In this document: positions 29,741 to 41,502 of the stretch, one piece after another
Layout of the letters: every line of letters starts with the position of its first letter
Position numbering within the stretch: the stretch's first letter is position 1
NCBI GenBank assembly: GCA_937921735.1
Contig: CAKZTQ010000004.1
Span: forward strand, 2,249 to 66,248
From: an uncultured archaeon
Lineage (GTDB): Archaea > Hadarchaeota > Hadarchaeia > Hadarchaeales > Hadarchaeaceae
Reading direction: 5' to 3'
DNA length: 64,000 nt
Notes under the pieces: model-generated
What the model saw: only the letters and a program-made list of their open reading frames with translations
Told to the model about the DNA's origin: nothing
The model's database searches: none
Program-made: the position numbers and the translations under genes

Positions 29741-29929
29741 ATGGTCGCCTTGAGGTCGGCGGCGAGCGTCGTGCTCGTCACCATCGCCATGCTTGGCATC
29801 TATCGCGATGAGAGGACGAAAGTTTCTCAGGTAGGCATACCGGTTTTCGGTTCCCCCATTGACGGCGGGCGAGCAACGCTCGTGCTCGAACGCACGGATG
29901 AGGGGGTTAAGGTCGGTGGCGAGCTCTGA
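29741..29929 (+). CDS. Small hypothetical protein with N-terminal hydrophobic segment
   Basis: 62 aa; overlaps the start of the downstream surface-protein gene. May be a truncated pilin-locus gene. Confidence 0.4.
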   Translation: MVALRSAASVVLVTIAMLGIYRDERTKVSQVGIPVFGSPIDGGRATLVLERTDEGVKVGGEL

Positions 29930-32420
29930 GGGTTTGCCCTTCTATATCCTCTTCAGCGTCGTAATGGCTTTGCTCCTCTGCGGTATATTCGCGATACAAG
30001 TACGCGAGCAGAGGAAAGTGGCCATCGACGAACAAGCGCAAAGTATCGTCGACGATATCGCCCGAGCTTGCTTTGCGGTCTTGACTCGACAGCAACTGAG
30101 CTATCCCATGCCTGCCAGCATTGGTGGTTGCAGCTATGAGTTGGAAGTCGATAACCAAACGATTGCGCTCAGGATGCTCGACGGTTTGCGAAGGGGACAA
30201 AGCTACTGCTCGATCGTAAATGTGGCAATCGAGGTTCGCTCGCTAGCATCTCCCGGTGGGGTGCTTTACCTCATGCGGCAAGGCGACAGGGTAATAATTT
30301 CAGCGGACCCCATCGAAGCGGAGATATCGAGGATCGAACAACCAACGGCGGATATTCCTCCCGAGTTCTACGCTTGGGCGAAGGAGAACCAAATTGAAGC
30401 CGCCGCGATGGTCGCCGCTTACTGCTACGCTCAGAATCGTTATGCCCCGATGCGAGAGGGCAAGTTATTGGATGTCATCGGATACGCACGTGATGGAGAG
30501 GATATCCTCGCCCGCGTGGTGTATCGCAACCCTGAATATTCGAGGCCCCGAGCCGGGAGTTGGACGCAGAGCCTGCTGGAGGACTTCGAGGCGTGCGAAA
30601 TCGAGAACTTGGACGTGACGAGTAGCCCAGGCGATGTCAGGCTTCAAACCACCTTCAAAGGCTCGAGGATCTACCTCCGCCCAACCGACGACGCAAGCGT
30701 TTACGAAAAATACCCAGGCGCCAACTACGGTAGCTATACCAGCATTTGGGTCACCCTGCGCGACAAACAAGGGTATAGAAATTGGGGCTTTTTGAGGTTC
30801 GAGCTGGGAGGGGTCCCATCGGCCGTCCTCGAGGCTAAGCTTCATTTGCACTGTTGGAAGCTCGAATTGGAGGAGTTCATCGCGGCTTGCCACGAGGTAG
30901 TTTGTGACGACTGGTCAGAACGAACGATCACTTGGTACAACAAGCCAGCCCCCGGCAACAGGTTGGACGCGCTCCCCATAACCAGCGCCGGTTGGTATGC
31001 ATGGGATGTTACGGATTTCGTTGCGAGGGAGCTCGAGGGCGATAGGGTCGTGAGCTTTTGTCTGAAGGGCGCGCCGGAGGCGGGGTATAGGGGACGTGCC
31101 CTTTTCGACTCAAAGGAGTGGCAGTTTAGCGATAAGCACCCTTACCTAGAGATAGTTTGTGCACCCAGATACGCAAGCACGGGCAGGTTGACCTCGCAAA
31201 TTTTCGACGCAGGCGATTTAGTCGAATGGGGGGCGATATCTTGGTCATCGGAAGAGCCCAGCGGGACCTCCATCGAGATAGAAGTTTCCGCCTCCCAGGA
31301 TAACGTGAGCTGGTCCACTTGGCAGAAATGTCGGAACGGCGCGAAAGCGCCGCTCGCCCCTGCGAGATTCATCAGGTATCGTGCCACCCTGCGCACGGAC
31401 AACATTTACATCACACCAACGTTGCACGATGTCGTCGTTCACTACAAGACCCTACCGACGGAGGAGGAACTCGCTATTCTGCGCGTGATCTTTGAGCGGG
31501 ATGGCGCACGGGTGGGCGAGGTAAACGACGCATGGTTGGTTTGCGGAGTTTCATTCGACGATTATCGCGGGGAGTTCGAGTACAACCCATCGGTGCTCGA
31601 GGCCCTTTCGGCCGGCTGGCTATATTTGCCTTCCCAAGTTCTAGAGCACCTGCGGGCGCGAACTTGGGTCAGCTGGGTAGAGGCGGAGACCAAAATCTAC
31701 CCAAGCGACGACGCGTTCGTCAACTCTGGTTCTTCTAATGCGAATTACGGTTCAAGCGCCGAGTTGCACATCAGGGACACCGGCGCTGATAACATACTTC
31801 GCCGGTCCATCCTAAAGTTCGACCTTTCGACCCTTCCGACGACGCTTAGGGGTGGAACTATACGATCCGCGACCCTCCACCTTTATTGCTTGGACTGGAG
31901 CGTCTCAAATCTATGGTTTTATGTCCGTGAAGTGACGGATGACTCCTGGAGCGAGGTGCAGGTAACTTGGAGCAATAGACCTTCGTTCGGAAACGTTTTG
32001 GCGAAGGAGTTTCAGGGGACTTGGGAAAGGTTTAAAGAAACATGGCGAACGTATGATGTCACCTCATACGTTGGGGATGAACACGCTCGGGATGGTATGG
32101 TTTCCTTTGGCCTCGATATGGATGATATCTCCGGAGGCATCTGGCCGGAGCCCGGGCAGGGCATGACGTTTTCCTCTAAGGAAGGAAGCTGTCCGCCGTA
32201 CCTCAAAGTCTTGCATCTAAAACCTTTGGACATCGTGCTCATACCTGAGGACGCCTTAGTTAGGGCAGGTGCGGCGATGACCAGGTCTGGTGCTTACCCG
32301 ATTTGGCGGGTCCAATGGGAAAACTACATCATTTACTACCAGATGATGCCTTGGTTTTCACAGGAGGAGACGCGCGGTTTCGTTTTTCAAAGCGAGCCAT
32401 ATCTAGAACCCCTGCTTTGA
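29916..32420 (+). CDS. Pilin-like surface protein with two DNRLRE (CBM96-like) domains
   Basis: From GTG 29916: SSEG/LPFYILFSVVMALLL hydrophobic helix. Two LRPTDDA/PSDDAF...NYGS...LKF.L...A.L.L...EV..D.WSE..ITW.N.P...W.VT..V...P.L modules. Confidence 0.8.
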   Translation: MASSEGLPFYILFSVVMALLLCGIFAIQVREQRKVAIDEQAQSIVDDIARACFAVLTRQQLSYPMPASIGGCSYELEVDNQTIALRMLDGLRRGQSYCSIVNVAIEVRSLASPGGVLYLMRQGDRVIISADPIEAEISRIEQPTADIPPEFYAWAKENQIEAAAMVAAYCYAQNRYAPMREGKLLDVIGYARDGEDILARVVYRNPEYSRPRAGSWTQSLLEDFEACEIENLDVTSSPGDVRLQTTFKGSRIYLRPTDDASVYEKYPGANYGSYTSIWVTLRDKQGYRNWGFLRFELGGVPSAVLEAKLHLHCWKLELEEFIAACHEVVCDDWSERTITWYNKPAPGNRLDALPITSAGWYAWDVTDFVARELEGDRVVSFCLKGAPEAGYRGRALFDSKEWQFSDKHPYLEIVCAPRYASTGRLTSQIFDAGDLVEWGAISWSSEEPSGTSIEIEVSASQDNVSWSTWQKCRNGAKAPLAPARFIRYRATLRTDNIYITPTLHDVVVHYKTLPTEEELAILRVIFERDGARVGEVNDAWLVCGVSFDDYRGEFEYNPSVLEALSAGWLYLPSQVLEHLRARTWVSWVEAETKIYPSDDAFVNSGSSNANYGSSAELHIRDTGADNILRRSILKFDLSTLPTTLRGGTIRSATLHLYCLDWSVSNLWFYVREVTDDSWSEVQVTWSNRPSFGNVLAKEFQGTWERFKETWRTYDVTSYVGDEHARDGMVSFGLDMDDISGGIWPEPGQGMTFSSKEGSCPPYLKVLHLKPLDIVLIPEDALVRAGAAMTRSGAYPIWRVQWENYIIYYQMMPWFSQEETRGFVFQSEPYLEPLL

Positions 32421-33045: not shown

Positions 33046-33996
33046 TTAAGCAGAATAGGTATTTAACCATGCACGTAGACCAAGTAAAATTCCTACCATC
33101 GTGTCCTCTCCTGAGGTTTCGCCCATCGTCAAAACCCTACCGGCTGCTTTTTTCACTTCGTCAGATCCAGCTGCTAGTATTACTTCTAGAAAGCCCTCAA
33201 TTATTTCGTTCGTCTCGCCGATAGCCGCGTGTTTTAGCATCTGTTGGCTCAAGAGCGTTGTCCTTCCCAAAGCCGAAGTCAATATGGTTTGGTTTACCAT
33301 GTGGAGGTAATCAGTATCCTTGCCGAACGAGTTAGCCATCCAACATAAGCTAGACATGAATCCCACTAGCAGGTCATCGGCTGAGGGGGATAAACCAGGT
33401 CCAAGCCCGACAAGTTTCTTTGTGCAGCTCCCCAGGAGGTCGAGGTCTTTGGACCTGATTGCAGCCACCAAAGATCTAACGTGCGGCAAGGCCAATTTGG
33501 CAACTCGGTTTAGGCTAGACTCATCTATAGCCACGCCAGCAACGATCTCGTCCACGTAAGGCAATAACTGTCCCAAACCTCCCTCGTAGCGTCCATCGCT
33601 TACCAACCTTTTCACCGTCAGCAAATTGTTTCGGATCGCTTCGATGTCGAGCGGTTTTGTCATCCCTCTTTTCGGGAGCCATATTTCGGCGCCTTCTAGC
33701 GATATTTTGAGCCGGCCCCCGATTTCGAGCAGCGTTCCAGTCCTCGAAACTCGATCATTTTTCCCGACGAGCGACGACATCCTCGTACTTGGTAGGATAT
33801 CGGTGATCAAGCTCGCTGGACTTCTTGCCACATCGCTCCTCCCTATGCCAATGAGTTCATCGTTTACCAAAACATTGAACGCGCGTTCGAAAACGCTATG
33901 TACAATTCCTAGGGTACTCTCCATCAACGCCCTTTGCGCCGTGGGACCGATAAAGACGGCCCTTGCGTATCGCATCCGATCTTCCAAGTAAAGCAA
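33046..33996 (-). CDS. DUF2877 (AllH-like) protein
   Basis: VHSVFERAFN, LVGLGPGLSPSADDLLVG, TT.LS...L..A..G, GETSGEDTMVG motifs. Confidence 0.88.
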   Translation of the reverse strand: MLYLEDRMRYARAVFIGPTAQRALMESTLGIVHSVFERAFNVLVNDELIGIGRSDVARSPASLITDILPSTRMSSLVGKNDRVSRTGTLLEIGGRLKISLEGAEIWLPKRGMTKPLDIEAIRNNLLTVKRLVSDGRYEGGLGQLLPYVDEIVAGVAIDESSLNRVAKLALPHVRSLVAAIRSKDLDLLGSCTKKLVGLGPGLSPSADDLLVGFMSSLCWMANSFGKDTDYLHMVNQTILTSALGRTTLLSQQMLKHAAIGETNEIIEGFLEVILAAGSDEVKKAAGRVLTMGETSGEDTMVGILLGLRAWLNTYSA

Positions 33997-34239: not shown

Positions 34240-36165
34240 TCACCACCTATTTTTCCTTCTAGATGGCGCTATTTTATCTAACTCATCCGCCGCGTCCTTC
34301 AGCCCGAGCTCCTCCAATTTGGCCCTAGTCGGCCAACCGGTTTCCTTATCCCACTGCCTCAGCTCGTAGTATTCATCGAGCATGGGGCCTAACAGCGGGC
34401 CAGCGGTGTATCCAGTGGCCCTGCCCGTCCCGCTCTCGACCATTATTCGCTTAGGCTGGATGTCATCTTTTCGCCCGATGCCTTCTCGAGCATTAAAGCA
34501 CCTCTGCAGGTTGTAGATCCTCTCGCCGATCTTCTTCAACTCGGCGGCATCCAACTGCATGCCGGTGGCCAAGCTTATCCCCCTCGCTAGCTCCGGCCAG
34601 TAGTAAGCCGGTGGAAAGTGCGTCCCGAACTTGCAGACTATCGCGCTGTCGGTTACCGCCCCCAGCTCCTCTCCGTCCTTTACCACCATGGGCTTGTACT
34701 TGGTAGAGAGACCGTCTACTATCTCCGGCAAATATTGCTCCCCATATCTCTTAACCGCAGCATCCACGTATCCAGTTTCATCGATGCACGGGAAACCCTT
34801 AAGGTGGTCGGCCCCTCGAGTGCTCGTGACGTGGGCCAAGATGTAGGATTGCTGACTGCGCGGGTCCTGAGCTGACATCTCCATGCCCTTGATATGCATG
34901 GCATAGTATTCAGCCCCTTTGCCAAATTTCTTGGCTGCCCTAGCTACGCCCTCGGCTAGCACGTCTCCTATACCCTCTCTCCTCGCGATCTTCTCGATGA
35001 GCTCTAGCACGACCTGAGGGTCTCCCCATTCGAGCTTCATGCCACCGGTGTCCTTCTCTGAGATGATTCCCCTTTCGAAGCACTCCATGGCGAAGGCGAT
35101 GACCCCGCCGGTTGAGATCGAATCGAGACCATAGTCGTCGCAAAGCAGGTCGCCCTTGATGATGGACGCCATGTCCCTGTTCCAAGTCCTGGCACCCAGC
35201 GCATTGATGGTCTCGTACTCTATCCCTTCCGTATAGGTGCCCTTGAATGGCCCCTCCCTAACTATAGCCGCTCGGCCACAGTTGATGGGACAGGCGTAGC
35301 AGCCCGTGCGTCTGACGAGGAATTTTTTCTCCAAGACTTCACCGGAGATCTCGTTCGCGTACGGAAAGTCACCGCGCTGGAAGTTCCTGGTCGGGAAGCG
35401 GCTGATCTCGTTCATGGGATTGACCAAGCCCGGCGTGCCGTATCGAGATGTCGAGGGCGTGTATTCATCGCTCAAGATTTGTTGTTGGACCTCGCATGCA
35501 TAATCGAAAAATTCATCGTCAGCAACCTCGACATCGAGTTCACCTCTCGCAGCCACGCACTTCAGGTTTTTACTTCCCATGACGGCGCCCAAGCCAGACC
35601 TAGCAGCAGCTCTACCGCTCGTTATAATACCAGCAAAGCGAACCAAATTTTCACCCGCTGGCCCTATGCCCGCCACCTTTATCCGTTCGTCGCCATGTTC
35701 CTGTCGTACGATCCTCTCGGTCTCCCAAGTGCCCCTGCCCCAGAGATGCGACGCATCTCGTAGCTCCGCGCGACCGTCCTCCACCCAAAGGTAAACCGGT
35801 CTCTTGCTCTTACCCTGAAAGATGATCATGTCATAACCGGCGAACTTGAGCTCGGGCGCGAAGTGACCGCCAGAGTTGGCATCTCCATAAATGCCGGTAA
35901 GGGGACTCTTGCCGATCACTTCCAGTCGACCGGCAGTTGGCCAGATCGTACCCGTTAAGGGGCCAGTACTAAGGATTAATCGATTTTCGGGGCTAAAGGG
36001 ATCTACGCCTTTTGGCACCTCGTCCCACAAAACCTTCGTGCCAAAGCCGTTGCCACCTAGGTATAGTCGAGCGCGCCACTCTTCGGTCTCCACTTCTTTG
36101 ATCTCGCCCTTAGTGAGGTCCACGCGGAGATACCTGCCGGTGTATGCGGAATACTTAAAAGCCAT
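34240..36165 (-). CDS. aor: Tungsten aldehyde:ferredoxin oxidoreductase family enzyme
   Basis: KSPLTG...ANSGG, GIGPAGENLV, AAARSGLGAVMGSKNLK, CYACPINC, DDYGLDSI, TRGADHL motifs. Confidence 0.95.
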   Translation of the reverse strand: MAFKYSAYTGRYLRVDLTKGEIKEVETEEWRARLYLGGNGFGTKVLWDEVPKGVDPFSPENRLILSTGPLTGTIWPTAGRLEVIGKSPLTGIYGDANSGGHFAPELKFAGYDMIIFQGKSKRPVYLWVEDGRAELRDASHLWGRGTWETERIVRQEHGDERIKVAGIGPAGENLVRFAGIITSGRAAARSGLGAVMGSKNLKCVAARGELDVEVADDEFFDYACEVQQQILSDEYTPSTSRYGTPGLVNPMNEISRFPTRNFQRGDFPYANEISGEVLEKKFLVRRTGCYACPINCGRAAIVREGPFKGTYTEGIEYETINALGARTWNRDMASIIKGDLLCDDYGLDSISTGGVIAFAMECFERGIISEKDTGGMKLEWGDPQVVLELIEKIARREGIGDVLAEGVARAAKKFGKGAEYYAMHIKGMEMSAQDPRSQQSYILAHVTSTRGADHLKGFPCIDETGYVDAAVKRYGEQYLPEIVDGLSTKYKPMVVKDGEELGAVTDSAIVCKFGTHFPPAYYWPELARGISLATGMQLDAAELKKIGERIYNLQRCFNAREGIGRKDDIQPKRIMVESGTGRATGYTAGPLLGPMLDEYYELRQWDKETGWPTRAKLEELGLKDAADELDKIAPSRRKNRW

Positions 36166-36169
36166 TTTT

Positions 36170-36637
36170 TCAGCCTCTAAATTTCACCCAAGCCGCGCGA
36201 GTTCTCTGGGCAACGATGTTTACGTCCGCTAGGGCGAGAACTCGTTCTGGGCAGGATTTAACACAGCCCGGGTCACCATCACAAAGGTCGCACTTGATCG
36301 CCACTTTTTTATCGGCGTGTAGCGTGATGGCGCCGAACGGACATTTCTCGATGCAAAGTCCACAGCCTATACATAAGCTTTCATCGATGTACACCAAACC
36401 ACTTTCCGGGTTTTTAGTTATCGCGCGCACAGGGCAGGCCTCTACGCACGGCGGCCTCGAGCATTGGTGGCACACGACGGGGTAGCTGATGCCATACTCC
36501 GTTCGGATGACACGAATGCGCGATTTTTCCGGGTTAAAAGCCCTTTCATGTCGAAAAGAACAAGCCAACTCACAGCTGCGACAGCCGGTGCAAGTATTGA
36601 TGGGTGGGCGCTCCATTAGGACTATCCTTTTCGCCAA
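36170..36637 (-). CDS. 4Fe-4S dicluster electron-transfer subunit
   Basis: Four Cys clusters: CTGCRSCELAC, CHQCSRPPCVEACP, CIGCGLCIEKCP, KCDLCDGDPGCVKSCP. Confidence 0.95.
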   Translation of the reverse strand: MAKRIVLMERPPINTCTGCRSCELACSFRHERAFNPEKSRIRVIRTEYGISYPVVCHQCSRPPCVEACPVRAITKNPESGLVYIDESLCIGCGLCIEKCPFGAITLHADKKVAIKCDLCDGDPGCVKSCPERVLALADVNIVAQRTRAAWVKFRG

Positions 36638-36671: not shown

Positions 36672-37310
36672 TTAGATCCTTTCACCCGCGAGCTTGCCGG
36701 CCTTTATCCTGTTCCACTGTTCTTTCGTCAAGCACTCGAGGGGGGTGTAGAACCCCGGATGCTTCATCTCTGGGTAAGGCTGAGGCACGAACCCAAATGC
36801 GGCGAAGAGCTTTCGCTTGCCGATGGCGCTCTCTGGAGGTGCGTATACCCTTTCGCACCCAAGCACGTCGAACCAATGCTCCAGCTTTGCCGGCCAGAGG
36901 TAGGCGCCTATCTGCAACCCACGTTTGTCGTGTCTGACCACCGTGTGCAAGCTCATCCCGGTCTTTGGGTCTACCAGCCCGCCGTTGGTGACGCCGACTA
37001 TTTCATCGCCGACCCTGCCAACGATGATGAAGTGGCTGTCCGGGTGCATGCCCGCTATGGGCCTGTTCTCCCTCCACCACAACAGCTCCGTGCAGATCTC
37101 CGCCGATACTAAATCGAACAGGTCCTTGTGGTATGATAGGTTTGGGGTCAAGGCCTCGATGATCTCGTCTATGTCGTCCTTGGTGCCGCTGCTCATTATC
37201 ATTTCCTCGCCGTTGGGTAGTATCACCCTCCTCGGTGGATAGGGCTTCATTATTTTCTTCCAATCGTACTCCGCGCCGACAGCTCCCTTCGCAAGCGGTG
37301 CTTCCTCCAT
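36672..37310 (-). CDS. GNAT-fold (N-acetyltransferase-like) protein of unknown function
   Basis: IIVGRVGDEIVG strand, KRGLQIGAYL (acetyl-CoA motif A-like), LFAAFGF (motif B-like). Confidence 0.6.
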   Translation of the reverse strand: MEEAPLAKGAVGAEYDWKKIMKPYPPRRVILPNGEEMIMSSGTKDDIDEIIEALTPNLSYHKDLFDLVSAEICTELLWWRENRPIAGMHPDSHFIIVGRVGDEIVGVTNGGLVDPKTGMSLHTVVRHDKRGLQIGAYLWPAKLEHWFDVLGCERVYAPPESAIGKRKLFAAFGFVPQPYPEMKHPGFYTPLECLTKEQWNRIKAGKLAGERI

Positions 37311-37344: not shown

Positions 37345-37689
37345 TTAACCGCTTTCTACAGGTTCGAACCTAAATCCGTATATGTCCTTATCTCCCAGCC
37401 TACGGAGCTTTCCCCACACCGGGCGCAACTTCATGCCTATCTTCGGTTCGTCCGTCGCGATTTGCCCGAAGGCTCGCACGCCGCCGAAATCTACTATGCC
37501 CAAGGTAAGTGGAGGCATCTCGATGCCCTCGGGCAAGGTGTAAAGTTTGGTGTAGGTAACTAACGTGCACTGATTGCCCAACTCAACCTCTTCCATGTTC
37601 ATACCCTTGCAGCTCACGCATCGCTCATGTTTGGGGTACATGATTCGACCACAGCTCTTACACCTAAAGCCCATCAACTTTTGATCCAT
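37345..37689 (-). CDS. DUF35 Zn-ribbon/OB-fold acyl-CoA-binding protein
   Basis: RCKSCG..MYPKHERC..C followed by an OB fold; abuts the thiolase-fold gene. Confidence 0.93.
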   Translation of the reverse strand: MDQKLMGFRCKSCGRIMYPKHERCVSCKGMNMEEVELGNQCTLVTYTKLYTLPEGIEMPPLTLGIVDFGGVRAFGQIATDEPKIGMKLRPVWGKLRRLGDKDIYGFRFEPVESG

Positions 37690-38853
37690 CTAATCCATCC
37701 TCTCCAAGATATGTATGACGGTATTGTTCCCGAAGCCCCCGAAGTTGCAGGCGAGGGCCCGCCGAGCACCCTTGACTTGGCGTTCTCCCGCCTCCCCGCG
37801 CAGCTGCCATACCAGTTCGACGATCTGGGCGACACCGGTGGCGCCTACGGGATGACCCCTTGCCTTTAGTCCGCCTGAGGGGTTAATGGGCAATTCGCCA
37901 TCTAGTGCCGTGACCCCCTCTTCAACAGCGATGTGCCCCTTACCCTTCTCGAAGAACCCGCAGTCCTCGCTCTGCACTATCTCTAAGATCTCGAAAGCAT
38001 CGTGCAGCTCAACCACATCTATATCCTTTGGCTCCAACTTTGCCATTTCAAAAGCCTTCCTCGCGGCCAGTCGAACCGACTTTAAAACGGCTGGATCTTC
38101 CCGCTCGTGCACGGATTGCACATCGGTGGCCTGCCCCACCCCAGCTATCCTAACGGGTGTATCGCAATACTTCTTCGCCTCATCCGCGGAACATAGCACC
38201 AGCGCGGCGGCGCCATCGCTTATAGGGCAGGTATAATAGAGCCGAATAGGGTCCGCGATCAATTGTGAACCCATAGCACCTTCGATCGTGATCGCCCTTT
38301 GGATGTGGGCGTAGGGGTTCTTCAGACCATTCGCGTGATTTTTCACGGCCACCATCGCGAGGTGTCGCTCCGTGAGGCCATACCGCTCCATGTAAAGCCG
38401 CGTCAACATCGCGGCGAGCGCGGGCAAGGTTACCCCGTGCAAGTATTCGGCAGTTGGATGGGTCATCGTTGACACTAAGTCGGTGATGACATCGGTGTCG
38501 GCGCTGGTCATCTTTTCTCCACCCGCGACGAGCACGAGGTCCGCTAAACCCGATGCGACGGCCAAAAATCCATTTTTGACCGCCGAAGCGCCTGATGCCG
38601 GGCCGTTCTCCACCCTATCCGCCGCCGCAGGGAACAAGGCGATCCTATCCACAAGGGCACTAGCGATCGCGGTCTGATGTACGAGCTCTCCAGCCATCAT
38701 ATTTCCAACGTAAACCGCGTCAAACTCTTTATCGCGAACCCCAGCGTCCTCTATCGCCTTCAGAGAGGCTTCCACCAAAATATCCATCAAGTCCTTTCCT
38801 TCAAGCCTGCCGAACTTCGTCATCCCGCATCCTATTATCGCAACATCCCTCAA
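37690..38853 (-). CDS. Thiolase-fold protein (SCP2-type) lacking the nucleophilic cysteine
   Basis: VAVKNH.NG..NP.AH, PISDGAAA, HDAF, NPSGGLKARGHPVGATG motifs; the usual ExACASG reads ENGPASG. Confidence 0.9.
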   Translation of the reverse strand: MRDVAIIGCGMTKFGRLEGKDLMDILVEASLKAIEDAGVRDKEFDAVYVGNMMAGELVHQTAIASALVDRIALFPAAADRVENGPASGASAVKNGFLAVASGLADLVLVAGGEKMTSADTDVITDLVSTMTHPTAEYLHGVTLPALAAMLTRLYMERYGLTERHLAMVAVKNHANGLKNPYAHIQRAITIEGAMGSQLIADPIRLYYTCPISDGAAALVLCSADEAKKYCDTPVRIAGVGQATDVQSVHEREDPAVLKSVRLAARKAFEMAKLEPKDIDVVELHDAFEILEIVQSEDCGFFEKGKGHIAVEEGVTALDGELPINPSGGLKARGHPVGATGVAQIVELVWQLRGEAGERQVKGARRALACNFGGFGNNTVIHILERMD

Positions 38854-38859
38854 CTTCGT

Positions 38860-39285
38860 TCACCGGCTTTTAGCCGTTCGTCCCTTTTCTTTAAAAACTT
38901 TTCGCAGCTTCCCCCTTAGGTCCCGCATGTTTTTGTACTCGATTAAAATAGCGTTCGGCAGGCCTCGGATCATCCAGGACAACTTCGTCCCGGTTTTATA
39001 AACGCAGATAATTTCCTTCCCGAGCAGGTGCGCCAGCATGAGCTCCATGCCGACACCGTGACTCGGCGTCGATACTTCGGCGACGATGGTATCGCACTCC
39101 CTCACGCCACTTGTGTCCCTTTTGAATACTTCCGCTTCGCTAAGTCCACCATTTGGATCCCTTTTCAGGACCCAGCCGGAGATTATTTCGTGACCGGTGG
39201 TTTTTATTATCTGCGCGATCTCCCTGGCAATTTCGATGTCCCTGTTCGCGACCAGAGGAACGGATAGGTAGATCCTCTTACGCAC
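38860..39285 (-). CDS. Nucleoside 2-deoxyribosyltransferase / DNPH1(RCL)-like N-glycosidase
   Basis: IYLSVPL, RD....ECD.IVAEVSTPSHGVGMEL motifs. Start taken at GTG 39285. Confidence 0.85.
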   Translation of the reverse strand: MRKRIYLSVPLVANRDIEIAREIAQIIKTTGHEIISGWVLKRDPNGGLSEAEVFKRDTSGVRECDTIVAEVSTPSHGVGMELMLAHLLGKEIICVYKTGTKLSWMIRGLPNAILIEYKNMRDLRGKLRKVFKEKGRTAKSR

Positions 39286-39372
39286 TAACCCCACCTCTAG
39301 CAACCACGCCGCTCGATAAATCCGACCGGTGGGTTTAAAAAACGATATGTAAACCAGAGCTGAGGGTCGAGC

Positions 39373-40347
39373 ATGAGGTTGGGCAGGGATTACACGAATT
39401 GCCTGGCGTTCGATTACCTCACCGAGGAGGAGAAACTGGACGTCATATATGGTCGGATCGATCTATCATCGCTAAGCGTCATCTCGCTCGCTAAGGCCAA
39501 GATGGATGTAGAGCGGCAGATCGAGGTGACCAAAGAGCTAGGCTTTCACCACGTAGAGCTCGACGCGGACCCGCCGAACCCTTACTTGAACTTCGACGGT
39601 CCTCGCAGGAAGGGTATCCTCGAAACCGCAGAGTCCTATGATGTAACGCTCTCCCTACACCTGCCATACAGTTACGTGGGCGGAAGCGCATGTTGTCCGC
39701 AGGAGGATGATCGCGCCATCGCGGTGGAACTTCACAAGAGGTGCATCGAATTCGCCTCCGATATCGGCGCTGAGTACGTCACCATGCACCCCGGAAGTAC
39801 GCCCACCTACCACAGGTTCGGGAGGTATCGCGATCTGGCGCGGGAGGCTTTGATTCGTAGCCTCGTTGAGACGGGCCGATTCGCTCAAAACTTAGGCTTG
39901 ATATTATGCCTCGAGAACAACACCGCATTCGATGATATCTTCAGCGAGCCGAACGAATGCTTGGCGGTGATCGAGGAGGTCCGAGAGCTAGGCGTAGACA
40001 TCTACTTCAACTTCGACATAGGGCACTGGTTCACTAGGCTTGACGTGGGTAAACCCATCCCGGAATCTCCAGAAAGTGTGATGGATTCGTTGCCGCCCGA
40101 TGTGCTGAAAGTGTTGCACCTCAACGACTACGTGCCCGGTGAGAGGATGTTTCACCCTCCACTACACTTGGAATGGGGACTTTTGAAGCGCGGTAACCTC
40201 GAGCGTTACGCGAAAATCGTAAAGCGTAAGGGCGTCGAGGTCGTCGTGCTAGAGACCGCGTTGAAATCCATCGGACAGGTGCTGGAGCGCTACGAGCTGC
40301 TCAGGGCCGAAAGCCACTACATCCTAGACATCTTCGAGGAAGCGTAA
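39373..40347 (+). CDS. Xylose isomerase-like TIM barrel (sugar-phosphate isomerase/epimerase family)
   Basis: VELDAD, SLHLPY, VTMHPG, LCLENN, FDIGHW, VLHLND metal-binding pattern. Confidence 0.85.
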   Translation: MRLGRDYTNCLAFDYLTEEEKLDVIYGRIDLSSLSVISLAKAKMDVERQIEVTKELGFHHVELDADPPNPYLNFDGPRRKGILETAESYDVTLSLHLPYSYVGGSACCPQEDDRAIAVELHKRCIEFASDIGAEYVTMHPGSTPTYHRFGRYRDLAREALIRSLVETGRFAQNLGLILCLENNTAFDDIFSEPNECLAVIEEVRELGVDIYFNFDIGHWFTRLDVGKPIPESPESVMDSLPPDVLKVLHLNDYVPGERMFHPPLHLEWGLLKRGNLERYAKIVKRKGVEVVVLETALKSIGQVLERYELLRAESHYILDIFEEA

Positions 40348-40386: not shown

Positions 40387-41502
40387 TCACTTGCGCTTTG
40401 CCATGAAGATTGCCGCGACGATCGCTATTACGACGATCACCGCTATCGCCACATAGAGCCATGGAATTTCGGTCTTGGGCGGCGGTGCCTCGACCTCCGC
40501 GATCGCCTTGCAGATCGCGGTGTTCTCCACTCCCGTGCCCGTCGCCCTAACCGTGATGGTCGTGGAATCGCGGTTCTCAGCATTTGCCGGTATCGTTATC
40601 CGTAGGGTTGCCGTTCCATCCTCGCCGGCCGTCAGCGTGAGGGTCGTCGGTGAGATAGTTGGCCCCCAACCCAGAGTATCCGTTACGCTGAGCGTGTAGT
40701 TGTCGCCGACGGTACCCGTGTTCCTAACCGTGACGGTATAGGTGAGGATATCTTCCGGCTTTCCAGTTTGGGTCGTCGGCGAGATCGTCACCTGCACTCC
40801 TCGTTGTTCCGTGGGCGGTGGGGGCGAGGGAGGTGCGCCGATGGAGTAGGTGATCTTCAGGTAAGGACGAGGTTGATCCTCGGCCGCGTCTTTGGAATAG
40901 AACCAAACCACAGCGTCGTCTGTCCCCTCGTTCTTCGACATCAGACCAAGGCTGACGATCTTGTCCCCCGCGAACTGGCTAACGACAAAGGAGGTCACGT
41001 CCCACTCGACGTACACGCCGGAGCCCTCTATTGTTTTGGTATCGAGGATGGCGCCCATAGGTGGCGCTGTGTTCCAGGTCAGCGTTGTCTCGCTCCAGGT
41101 GTCGCTCTCCACCTCCTTTGCGTCGACCGTTATGACTTTTGAAGTGTACGGCGGTTCACCTATGGATGGCGTGTATTTATTGTACAGCCCAAGCACGGCT
41201 TTCTCGATCACCGCTTCAGCAGGGAGATTGCGTAGGTCGAACTTTAGATAAATCCTCTCCGATAGGTATCTTTGCTCGTCCCAGCCAACGTACATGTTGT
41301 ATCTCTTACCACCATCTGAGACAGTATCCGGTTGACCTTCCATGACATGCGAATCCTCGATCGGTAGCAGTTGGACTGTTGCTGGCGACGCGGTTACTGA
41401 GCCTGCGGCGACGTAGCTAAGCTGCGCGTAAAAAATCGCTGATGTAATCGTTAGGGCCAAAATTAACGTCAACGGCGAAATCTCCTTAGATCCGCTCCTC
41501 AT
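40387..41502 (-). CDS. Membrane-anchored surface protein: DNRLRE domain + Pro linker + Ig-like domain + C-terminal TM
   Basis: Signal peptide; IEDSHV...YLKFDL...WSETTLTWNTAP...WDVT...RPYL; PPSPPPP linker; TVTVRNTG...DNYTL; TM helix and KRK tail. Confidence 0.85.
   Translation of the reverse strand: MRSGSKEISPLTLILALTITSAIFYAQLSYVAAGSVTASPATVQLLPIEDSHVMEGQPDTVSDGGKRYNMYVGWDEQRYLSERIYLKFDLRNLPAEAVIEKAVLGLYNKYTPSIGEPPYTSKVITVDAKEVESDTWSETTLTWNTAPPMGAILDTKTIEGSGVYVEWDVTSFVVSQFAGDKIVSLGLMSKNEGTDDAVVWFYSKDAAEDQPRPYLKITYSIGAPPSPPPPTEQRGVQVTISPTTQTGKPEDILTYTVTVRNTGTVGDNYTLSVTDTLGWGPTISPTTLTLTAGEDGTATLRITIPANAENRDSTTITVRATGTGVENTAICKAIAEVEAPPPKTEIPWLYVAIAVIVVIAIVAAIFMAKRK

Follow-up and report, generated by a model that had tools for sequence, protein, structure and literature searches.

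Cores made of a thiolase-fold subunit and a DUF35 protein are emerging as a reusable platform, found in the mevalonate entry complex, in archaeal fatty-acid synthesis, in steroid aldolases, and in Friedel-Crafts acylases. Here, we consider a member of this group from an uncultured archaeon of the Hadarchaeales (Hadarchaeota). The DNA analyzed is a stretch of 64,000 nucleotides (assembly GCA_937921735.1, contig CAKZTQ010000004.1, positions 2,249 to 66,248), which we refer to as the window. Its minus strand carries a gene at 37690-38853 for a thiolase-fold protein of 387 amino acids that lacks the nucleophilic cysteine. The described system closest to this protein in both sequence and fold is the archaeal acetoacetyl-CoA thiolase (ACAT) of the HMGS/ACAT/DUF35 complex, known from Methanothermococcus thermolithotrophicus (PDB 6ESQ/6ET9) and P. 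furiosus (PDB 7YVY), with 40-42% identity and a TM score of 0.87-0.91 for our model. Common to ACAT and the window protein are the histidine of the HDxF motif (His284), the histidine of the GHP motif, and an adjacent, free-standing DUF35 protein with a four-cysteine zinc ribbon. ACAT has Cys85 and an HMG-CoA synthase (HMGS) neighbor, whereas the window protein has Pro85, a third partner with a GNAT fold, and no HMGS neighbor. The HDxF histidine is essential in the archaeal thiolase, where the H284A substitution abolishes product formation (PMC12960953). We read the window protein, with a probability of about one half, as the non-thiolase core subunit of a thiolase-like/DUF35/GNAT module that carries out Cys-independent chemistry on CoA-ester enolates, and that is accessory to and separate from the HMGS/thiolase/DUF35 complex.

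Other described systems share one or more of these features. A thiolase fold without the cysteine is likewise combined with DUF35 in the steroid side-chain aldolases Ltp2-ChsH2 (PDB 6OK1) and Sal-Shy, which carry out a Cys-independent cleavage of C-C bonds that yields an acyl-CoA enolate (PMC12329534). In both, the base is a tyrosine within YD[H/C][F/Y] (YDHF/YDCY), and the acid is Tyr344 in Ltp2 or Cys304 in Sal (PMC12329534). The original prediction, made from the window sequence alone, had proposed an Ltp2-like aldolase, a proposal that the comparison did not support. The tyrosine base is replaced by His284 of the HDAF motif in all 121 clade members compared, the position of Cys304 in Sal is Ala286, and the equivalent of Ltp2 Tyr344, judged by spacing only, would fall near His334. 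In addition, the DUF35 domain of Ltp2/Sal systems is part of the preceding MaoC-type hydratase, while that of the window is a free-standing protein of 114 amino acids in a cluster with no hydratase. In superposition, the model was nearer to the archaeal thiolases than to Ltp2, for which the TM score was 0.78 at 26% identity. In Trypanosoma brucei, the Cys-less SCP2-type thiolase fold of TbSLP (PDB 5AB4-5AB7) is 26-27% identical to the window protein and differs in its YDCF motif, its lack of a DUF35 partner, and its eukaryotic origin; it is described, in work cited within PMC12329534, as binding malonyl-CoA and as a weak malonyl-CoA decarboxylase with a kcat of 0.005 per s. Finally, the Friedel-Crafts acyltransferase complexes PhlABC and MucABC (PDB 5M3K, 9VBO) took their thiolase/DUF35 core from the archaeal complex, dock a third subunit via DUF35, and have rewired key motifs (PMC12960953). 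PhlC and MucB retain the cysteine and lose HDxF, so that the clade described below, which loses the cysteine and retains HDxF, is their mirror image; the third subunit is HMGS-like in PhlABC/MucABC and GNAT-like in the window module.

Loss of the nucleophilic cysteine across a clade

The translation of 37690-38853 (minus strand), which contains AADRVENGPASGASA, agrees with the catalytic loop that the original prediction had described. The loop reads gag aac ggc CCG gca tca ggc in the DNA and D-R-V-E-N-G-P-A-S-G (RVENGPASG) in the peptide, and the CCG codon at 38599-38601 (minus strand) places Pro85 at the site of the thiolase nucleophile, which is Cys85 in the M. thermolithotrophicus enzyme. 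The gene begins with TTG, a start that appears credible because the N-terminus aligns with the MRDVAIIG start of homologs, in which R2 and G8 are invariant. In addition to NGPASG, the protein carries HDAF (residues 284-287), GHPVGATG (residues 333-340), and CNFGGF. The earlier claim that HDAF and GHPVGATG are kept holds in the sense of HDxF (His284), the third residue of this motif being variable in true thiolases. It is Cys (HDCF) in the canonical paralog of the same genome and in SCP2-type thiolases, and Ala in the window protein. HDAF alone is not diagnostic because true Cys-containing archaeal thiolases have it too, including PDB 7YVY and 25 of 85 Cys-containing representatives; the idea that HDAF marks the loss of a second catalytic cysteine was dropped for this reason.

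In thiolases, the backbone NH of the nucleophilic cysteine makes up half of the second oxyanion hole. Because Pro85 removes both the thiol and this NH, acyl-enzyme chemistry is excluded, and it is established that the window protein is not a thiolytic or Claisen enzyme. Family models are in line with a thiolase fold. Full-length matches were obtained to the Pfam domains Thiolase_N, Thiolase_C, and Thiolase_C_1, and the protein passed NCBIfam NF004720 (PRK06064; 474.7 bits, cut-off 420), whose name, "thiolase domain-containing protein," implies no function. It fell below the cut-off of the ACAT equivalog NF053570 (430.9 bits, cut-off 600).

The replacement extends far beyond this genome. The best 120 database matches, which are 70-100% identical, come from Hadarchaeota, Bathyarchaeia (some labeled Thaumarchaeota), and Methanoperedens. 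A scan of GTDB species representatives gave 435 confirmed relatives, and the best 80 of these (57-98% identical), on which motifs were checked, add Asgard lineages, Aigarchaeota, and Korarchaeota-like Thermoproteota, along with bacteria from the Thermotogae, Bipolaricaulota, Eisenbacteria, Zixibacteria, Gemmatimonadota, Neomarinimicrobiota, and Fibrobacteraceae. Among 121 close homologs used for residue counts, position 85 is Pro in 120 and Thr in one, while NGPASG is present in all 80 of the scanned loci and HDAF in 78. Thus, Pro85 is neither a chance change nor a sequencing error. The earlier verdict that the protein is a non-thiolase is supported in the mechanistic sense. Other active-site residues are just as constant: His284, Asp285, Ala286, Phe287, Asn324, and His334 are found in 121/121 of the close homologs, as is Cys209, with Cys369 in 120/121. 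When set against 85 Cys-containing relatives, the positions specific to the clade are G84, P85, S90, K93, H132, A135, A147, L290, S295, C369, F371, F374, N376, and N377, of which G84, P85, S90, H132, C369, F371, and F374 cluster around the active-site motifs. The invariants common to both sets are H284, D285, N324, H334, and G372.

We placed these sequences on a tree with 133 representatives of the nearest clusters at 50% identity, where those with NGPASG formed one group (25/25 with Pro, SH-like support 97), nested in a larger Cys-less group with Pro or Ser and located beside Cys-containing thiolases of the HDAF type. Across the tree, 48 of the 133 representatives lack the nucleophilic cysteine, with Pro, Ser, Asp, Gly, Asn, Glu, Ala, or Gln in its place, which requires at least eight changes. 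Cys-less paralogs of archaeal-type thiolases therefore seem far commoner than the literature suggests. One Cys-less group is otherwise canonical, with motifs such as EGADASG, HDCF, and THNVGGT. The Ser-type sister group includes ST0096, a "thiolase-like protein" of Sulfolobus tokodaii with a solved structure (PDB 4YZO), which is Cys-less, about 40% identical to the window protein, and superimposes with a TM score of 0.84. ST0096 differs in having Ser at the nucleophile site (DNTSGSG), HDMA rather than HDAF, and no CNFGGF, and our literature searches found no published function for it.

Those searches likewise found no paper on the NGPASG clade, in keeping with the earlier statement that the ENGPASG-type paralogs of other archaea are not known to be characterized. 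Members are named "thiolase domain-containing protein" at NCBI and often "acetyl-CoA C-acetyltransferase" in JGI/IMG (e.g., P0007, P0013, and P0016). The latter label is a systematic mis-annotation, as had been anticipated for the window gene. Among proteins of 679-2000 amino acids, a search for fusions returned three distant GntR/FCD-thiolase proteins (43-45% identical) and none from the NGPASG clade, which we regard as weak evidence. Separately, a contig labeled as an Anaerolineales bacterium (L035, JAIWAT010000053.1) carries a Methanoperedens-like array of ACS, a Cys-less thiolase-like protein (75% identity, with a CCNFGGF variant), and methylmalonyl-CoA mutase, which points to mis-binning or recent transfer.

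A conserved module with DUF35 and a GNAT-fold protein

The partner gene at 37345-37689 (minus strand) encodes a DUF35 protein of 114 amino acids, with a four-cysteine zinc ribbon (C10, C13, C24, and C27) and an OB fold; Pfam recognized zf-ChsH2, with OB_ChsH2_C below its cut-off. As had been stated, this gene abuts the thiolase-like gene with no gap, since the latter ends in atg gat TAG and the former begins at once with ATG gat caa (zero bases between). Overlooked in the original prediction was a third gene at 36672-37310 (minus strand), for a protein of 212 amino acids with a weak GNAT match whose fold was assigned from a model. The AlphaFold model has a pLDDT of 88.7, its top Foldseek matches are GNAT structures, and a language-model search returned GNAT clusters only. 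In the family alignment, RG-x-x-x-GA lies at the site of the GNAT CoA-binding loop, and S120, H122, and T123 are invariant. A role for this protein as malonyl-CoA decarboxylase was considered and set aside, because Foldseek gave generic N-acetyltransferases (PA3270, RimJ, and SpeG; TM about 0.5-0.6) that indicate no specific reaction.

We counted linkage in 84 loci by profile searches of six-frame open reading frames, with assessable loci as denominators. DUF35 lies directly downstream of the thiolase-like gene in 24/24 loci of Hadarchaeota, 12/12 of Bathyarchaeia/TACK, 18/18 of bacteria, and 8/8 of Methanoperedens, which makes 62/62 for the non-Asgard loci, and in 7/20 of the Asgard loci. A GNAT-like gene occurs within one gene of the module in 22/22 loci of Hadarchaeota, 10/11 of Bathyarchaeia/TACK, and 18/18 of bacteria, or 50/51 together, and in 0/7 loci of Methanoperedens and 0/20 of Asgard archaea. 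It follows DUF35 in some loci and, in others, immediately precedes the pair in the same orientation. Methylmalonyl-CoA mutase is adjacent in 5/8 loci of Methanoperedens and 3/20 of Asgard archaea, and a mutase is adjacent in 0/24 of Hadarchaeota, 0/12 of Bathyarchaeia/TACK, and 0/18 of bacteria; GNAT and mutase never occur together at one of the 84 loci. The neighboring mutases score as methylmalonyl-CoA mutase and retain RQY and the Arg residues, which bind the substrate carboxylate in that enzyme. The association with GNAT also holds at the level of genomes. In a set of 31 Hadarchaeales genomes, 11 have the Cys-less paralog, and every one of these carries the GNAT-like gene; the only two extra GNAT matches lie no more than about 600 bp from the end of a contig. 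The thiolase-like, DUF35, and GNAT genes are thus a conserved module, linked in position and in phyletic pattern. The DUF35 adjacency on which the original prediction was built stands, but the conserved unit is three genes rather than a pair.

Modeling weakly suggests that the three proteins form a complex. With GNAT as the scored partner, the three-chain prediction reached 0.43 versus 0.00 for the best control, with partner pLDDT of at least 79 and runs that agree in at least 80% of contacts. This score is to be read against a calibration in which 58 of 80 solved complexes and 2 of 110 mismatches reached the mark, with 7 of the 80 and both of the passing mismatches doing so at 0.60 or below.

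The genome from which the window derives, a 1.06-Mb Hadarchaeales metagenome-assembled genome that is 83% complete, also has the canonical locus that the original prediction had suggested looking for. An operon on another contig (C32) encodes HMG-CoA synthase (588.9 bits, TIGR00748), a thiolase of 387 amino acids, and a DUF35 protein of 130 amino acids. This thiolase has RVEGACASG, HDCF, and GHPVGATG and is 48% identical to the window protein. The canonical paralog is present in nearly all of the 31 Hadarchaeales genomes, while the Cys-less paralog (at least 64% identical) is present in 11. Given this operon in the same genome and its near-universal presence among relatives, the window gene is an accessory, extra paralog and not a replacement of the canonical thiolase. 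No HMG-CoA synthase was seen in the neighborhoods of the module loci.

In other genomes, the module is found next to AllF/AllG/AllH-like genes, amidohydrolases, a cyclase-family hydrolase, three-subunit Mo-hydroxylases, Bmp-type ABC transporters, and ACS-like ligases. AllF, AllG, and AllH belong to the oxamate carbamoyltransferase family (PMC11326118). This set of neighbors is a catabolic setting for N-heterocycles or ureides. In many loci of Hadarchaeota and Bathyarchaeia, the AllH-like gene lies beside the GNAT gene or immediately after it, and its product may be a partner of the module instead of a component of an oxamate carbamoyltransferase.

Candidate reactions and competing readings

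The residues of the first oxyanion hole, in which the histidine of GHP and an Asn-bound water stabilize a CoA-ester enolate, are intact in the window protein. Retention of His284, Asp285, Asn324, and His334 across archaea and bacteria argues for an active site that is probably working rather than dead. If so, an acyl-CoA would be bound with its thioester polarized in the His334/Asn324 oxyanion hole, and His284 would act as acid or base. The CoA-ester enolate would be made, or protonated and consumed, with no covalent intermediate. DUF35 may dock the GNAT protein on the core, by analogy with the HMGS, PhlA/MucA, and Sulfolobus reductase and dehydratase partners of other thiolase/DUF35 cores, which would allow a CoA ester to pass between the two active sites.

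As for the reaction, we favor the decarboxylation of a malonyl- or methylmalonyl-CoA-type substrate, although only tentatively. It is the one class that we could fit to both sets of neighbors, the ureide and N-heterocycle genes with GNAT on the one hand, where a C3 unit derived from pyrimidines would suit, and methylmalonyl-CoA mutase on the other. In addition, decarboxylation is what Cys-less ketosynthases do and what TbSLP does weakly. KSQ loading domains and polyketide chain-length factors belong to the thiolase superfamily, have lost the active cysteine, and decarboxylate malonyl groups via the remaining His and Asn. They act on acyl carrier protein substrates and belong to the ketosynthase branch, so that their likeness to the clade would be in working mode, not in membership. 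Several observations weigh against our reading, including the fact that these known decarboxylating ketosynthases carry Gln, not Pro, at the cysteine site. The window cluster has no CoA ligase, CoA transferase, or obvious source of malonyl-CoA, and the ureide context is only partly present in the source genome because AllG, the cyclase, the Mo-hydroxylase, and the mutase were not found there. Support from modeling for a complex with GNAT is weak. Furthermore, the neighboring gene for an aldehyde:ferredoxin oxidoreductase (AOR) family protein suits a retro-aldol reaction that releases an aldehyde better than it suits decarboxylation, and the conservation of Cys369 and Cys209 has to be accounted for.

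Alternatively, the core may have no catalytic role of its own. As a scaffold or CoA-binding subunit, the pair would hold the real enzyme, be it GNAT or, in other lineages, the mutase, and perhaps lend it a CoA site. The loss of the nucleophile and, with Pro, of one oxyanion-hole NH speaks for this, and there is precedent in the DUF35 cores that scaffold HMGS, PhlABC/MucABC, and the fatty-acid-synthase complexes of Sulfolobus. The occurrence of two unrelated partners (GNAT or mutase) at the same gene position, along with conservation high enough (57-98%) to reflect several protein interfaces, is consistent with this view. Yet His284, Asp285, Asn324, and His334, whose loss one would expect in an inactive protein, are as invariant here as in active thiolases, and the clade-specific changes cluster in active-site motifs instead of being scattered. 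We consider a pure scaffold unlikely, but by no means negligible. The main alternative reaction, a retro-aldol cleavage of the Ltp2/Sal type, strikes us as doubtful. It would convert a 3-hydroxyacyl-CoA to an aldehyde and acetyl-CoA, leaving AOR to oxidize the aldehyde. Such a scheme draws on the shared architecture of a Cys-less SCP2-type thiolase fold with DUF35, on AOR and ferredoxin in the same operon here and AOR near the module in five other loci, and on the Asgard loci, where the paralog has acyl-CoA dehydrogenase, ETF, and a classical thiolase as neighbors. What speaks against it are the differences from Ltp2 and Sal already described, namely His in place of the catalytic Tyr, Ala286 in place of the acid Cys304, a DUF35 protein that is unfused to MaoC hydratase in a cluster without one, and a model nearer to the archaeal thiolases than to Ltp2; moreover, no aldol substrate is apparent for the members linked to a mutase.

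Two further proposals were considered. A conventional thiolase with a relocated nucleophile, either Cys369, which adjoins the classical CxG position, or Cys209, is very unlikely. Cys369 is specific to the clade, true thiolases having His or Gln at that position, and a cysteine recurs there in the Ser-type Cys-less sister group; Cys209 is invariant. Still, some members of the clade (P0125 and P0123) have Val or Ile at position 369. In classical thiolases, it is the following residue that faces the active site, and since position 369 lies in a predicted strand, its side chain probably points away. Canonical enzymes with Cys85 likewise have a cysteine next to position 209, and Pro85 removes the oxyanion-hole NH that acyl-enzyme chemistry needs. 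More speculatively, and with fairly long odds, the trio could be a new kind of CoA-dependent machine that cleaves C-N and C-C bonds. The GNAT protein would run "backwards," moving to CoA the acyl group of an activated amide, namely an N-acylurea like the ureidomalonate formed when a pyrimidine ring is opened, after which the Cys-less fold would decarboxylate malonyl-CoA to acetyl-CoA; in mutase-linked lineages, the core would act on methylmalonyl-CoA, as a soluble decarboxylase that needs no biotin. If this were true, the energy of the ring bond would be conserved as a thioester without biotin or ATP.

Genomic setting and implications

In order of transcription, the minus-strand run of the window encodes a deoxyribosyltransferase-like protein, the thiolase-like protein, DUF35, the GNAT-like protein, a 4Fe-4S protein, an AOR-family protein, and an AllH-like protein. 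The first of these (38860-39303, minus strand) is a nucleoside 2-deoxyribosyltransferase-like protein of 147 amino acids, the stop codon of which is 6 nt before the thiolase-like start; it is conserved in only one other locus (L010). Directly downstream of GNAT is a 4Fe-4S ferredoxin-like protein (36170-36637, minus strand; 155 amino acids), whose family (cluster 17) recurs with AOR in three loci (L009, L010, and L044). The AOR-family protein (34240-36165, minus strand) has 641 amino acids, and AOR is found near the module in six loci from two phyla, counting the window. The last gene of the cluster on this strand (33046-33996, minus strand) encodes the AllH-like (DUF2877) protein of 316 amino acids. 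AllF, AllG, the cyclase, the Mo-hydroxylase, and the mutase were not found in the source genome, which has AllH-like only; because it is 83% complete, these genes may nevertheless be present. The source cluster is a reduced, AOR-linked Hadarchaeal version of the module.

Beyond the cluster, the remaining annotated window is mainly housekeeping. Divergent from the cluster is a gene (39373-40347, plus strand) for a xylose-isomerase-like TIM-barrel protein of 324 amino acids with faint similarity to CbiR. In four other Hadarchaeal loci, including L012, L018, and L024, a member of its family (cluster 18) is the second gene upstream of the module. The cluster is flanked by two CBM96-domain proteins, one of 853 amino acids (29859-32420, plus strand) and one of 371 amino acids with Ig-like repeats (40387-41502, minus strand), which are probably secreted or exposed at the cell surface and have no connection with the cluster. 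A different arrangement was seen in five Asgard loci (L071:3394-6065, L072:7113-9724, L075:6615-9224, L078:6483-9224, and L086:6383-8993), where a classical bacterial-type thiolase lies directly upstream of a Cys-less paralog of 407 amino acids. The upstream thiolase (447-448 amino acids) has both catalytic cysteines, in NRQCASG and a C-terminal CVGLGMG. These five loci have no adjacent DUF35, and genes for acyl-CoA dehydrogenase and ETF occur either with them or in related loci of Asgard archaea. The pairing recalls that of ketosynthases with chain-length factors.

Our analysis contributes the AOR-linked form of the module in Hadarchaeota, in a genome where the other ureide-pathway genes were not found, the co-occurrence of the Cys-less paralog and GNAT at the level of genomes, a tree with repeated loss of the cysteine, and a link to PDB 4YZO, on which the geometry of the active site could be modeled. 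The clade is widespread, with 435 confirmed GTDB relatives from several archaeal and many bacterial phyla, and unusually conserved, and it has lost the residue that defines thiolase chemistry while retaining the rest. GNAT is a type of partner not previously seen with a thiolase/DUF35 core. Once found, the reaction would be a new activity for the thiolase superfamily. It would also correct the "acetyl-CoA acetyltransferase" labels that inflate predictions of mevalonate, beta-oxidation, or butyrate metabolism in uncultured archaea. More generally, it would probably fill a missing step in the anaerobic breakdown of nucleobases and ureides or in the metabolism of propionate and succinate.

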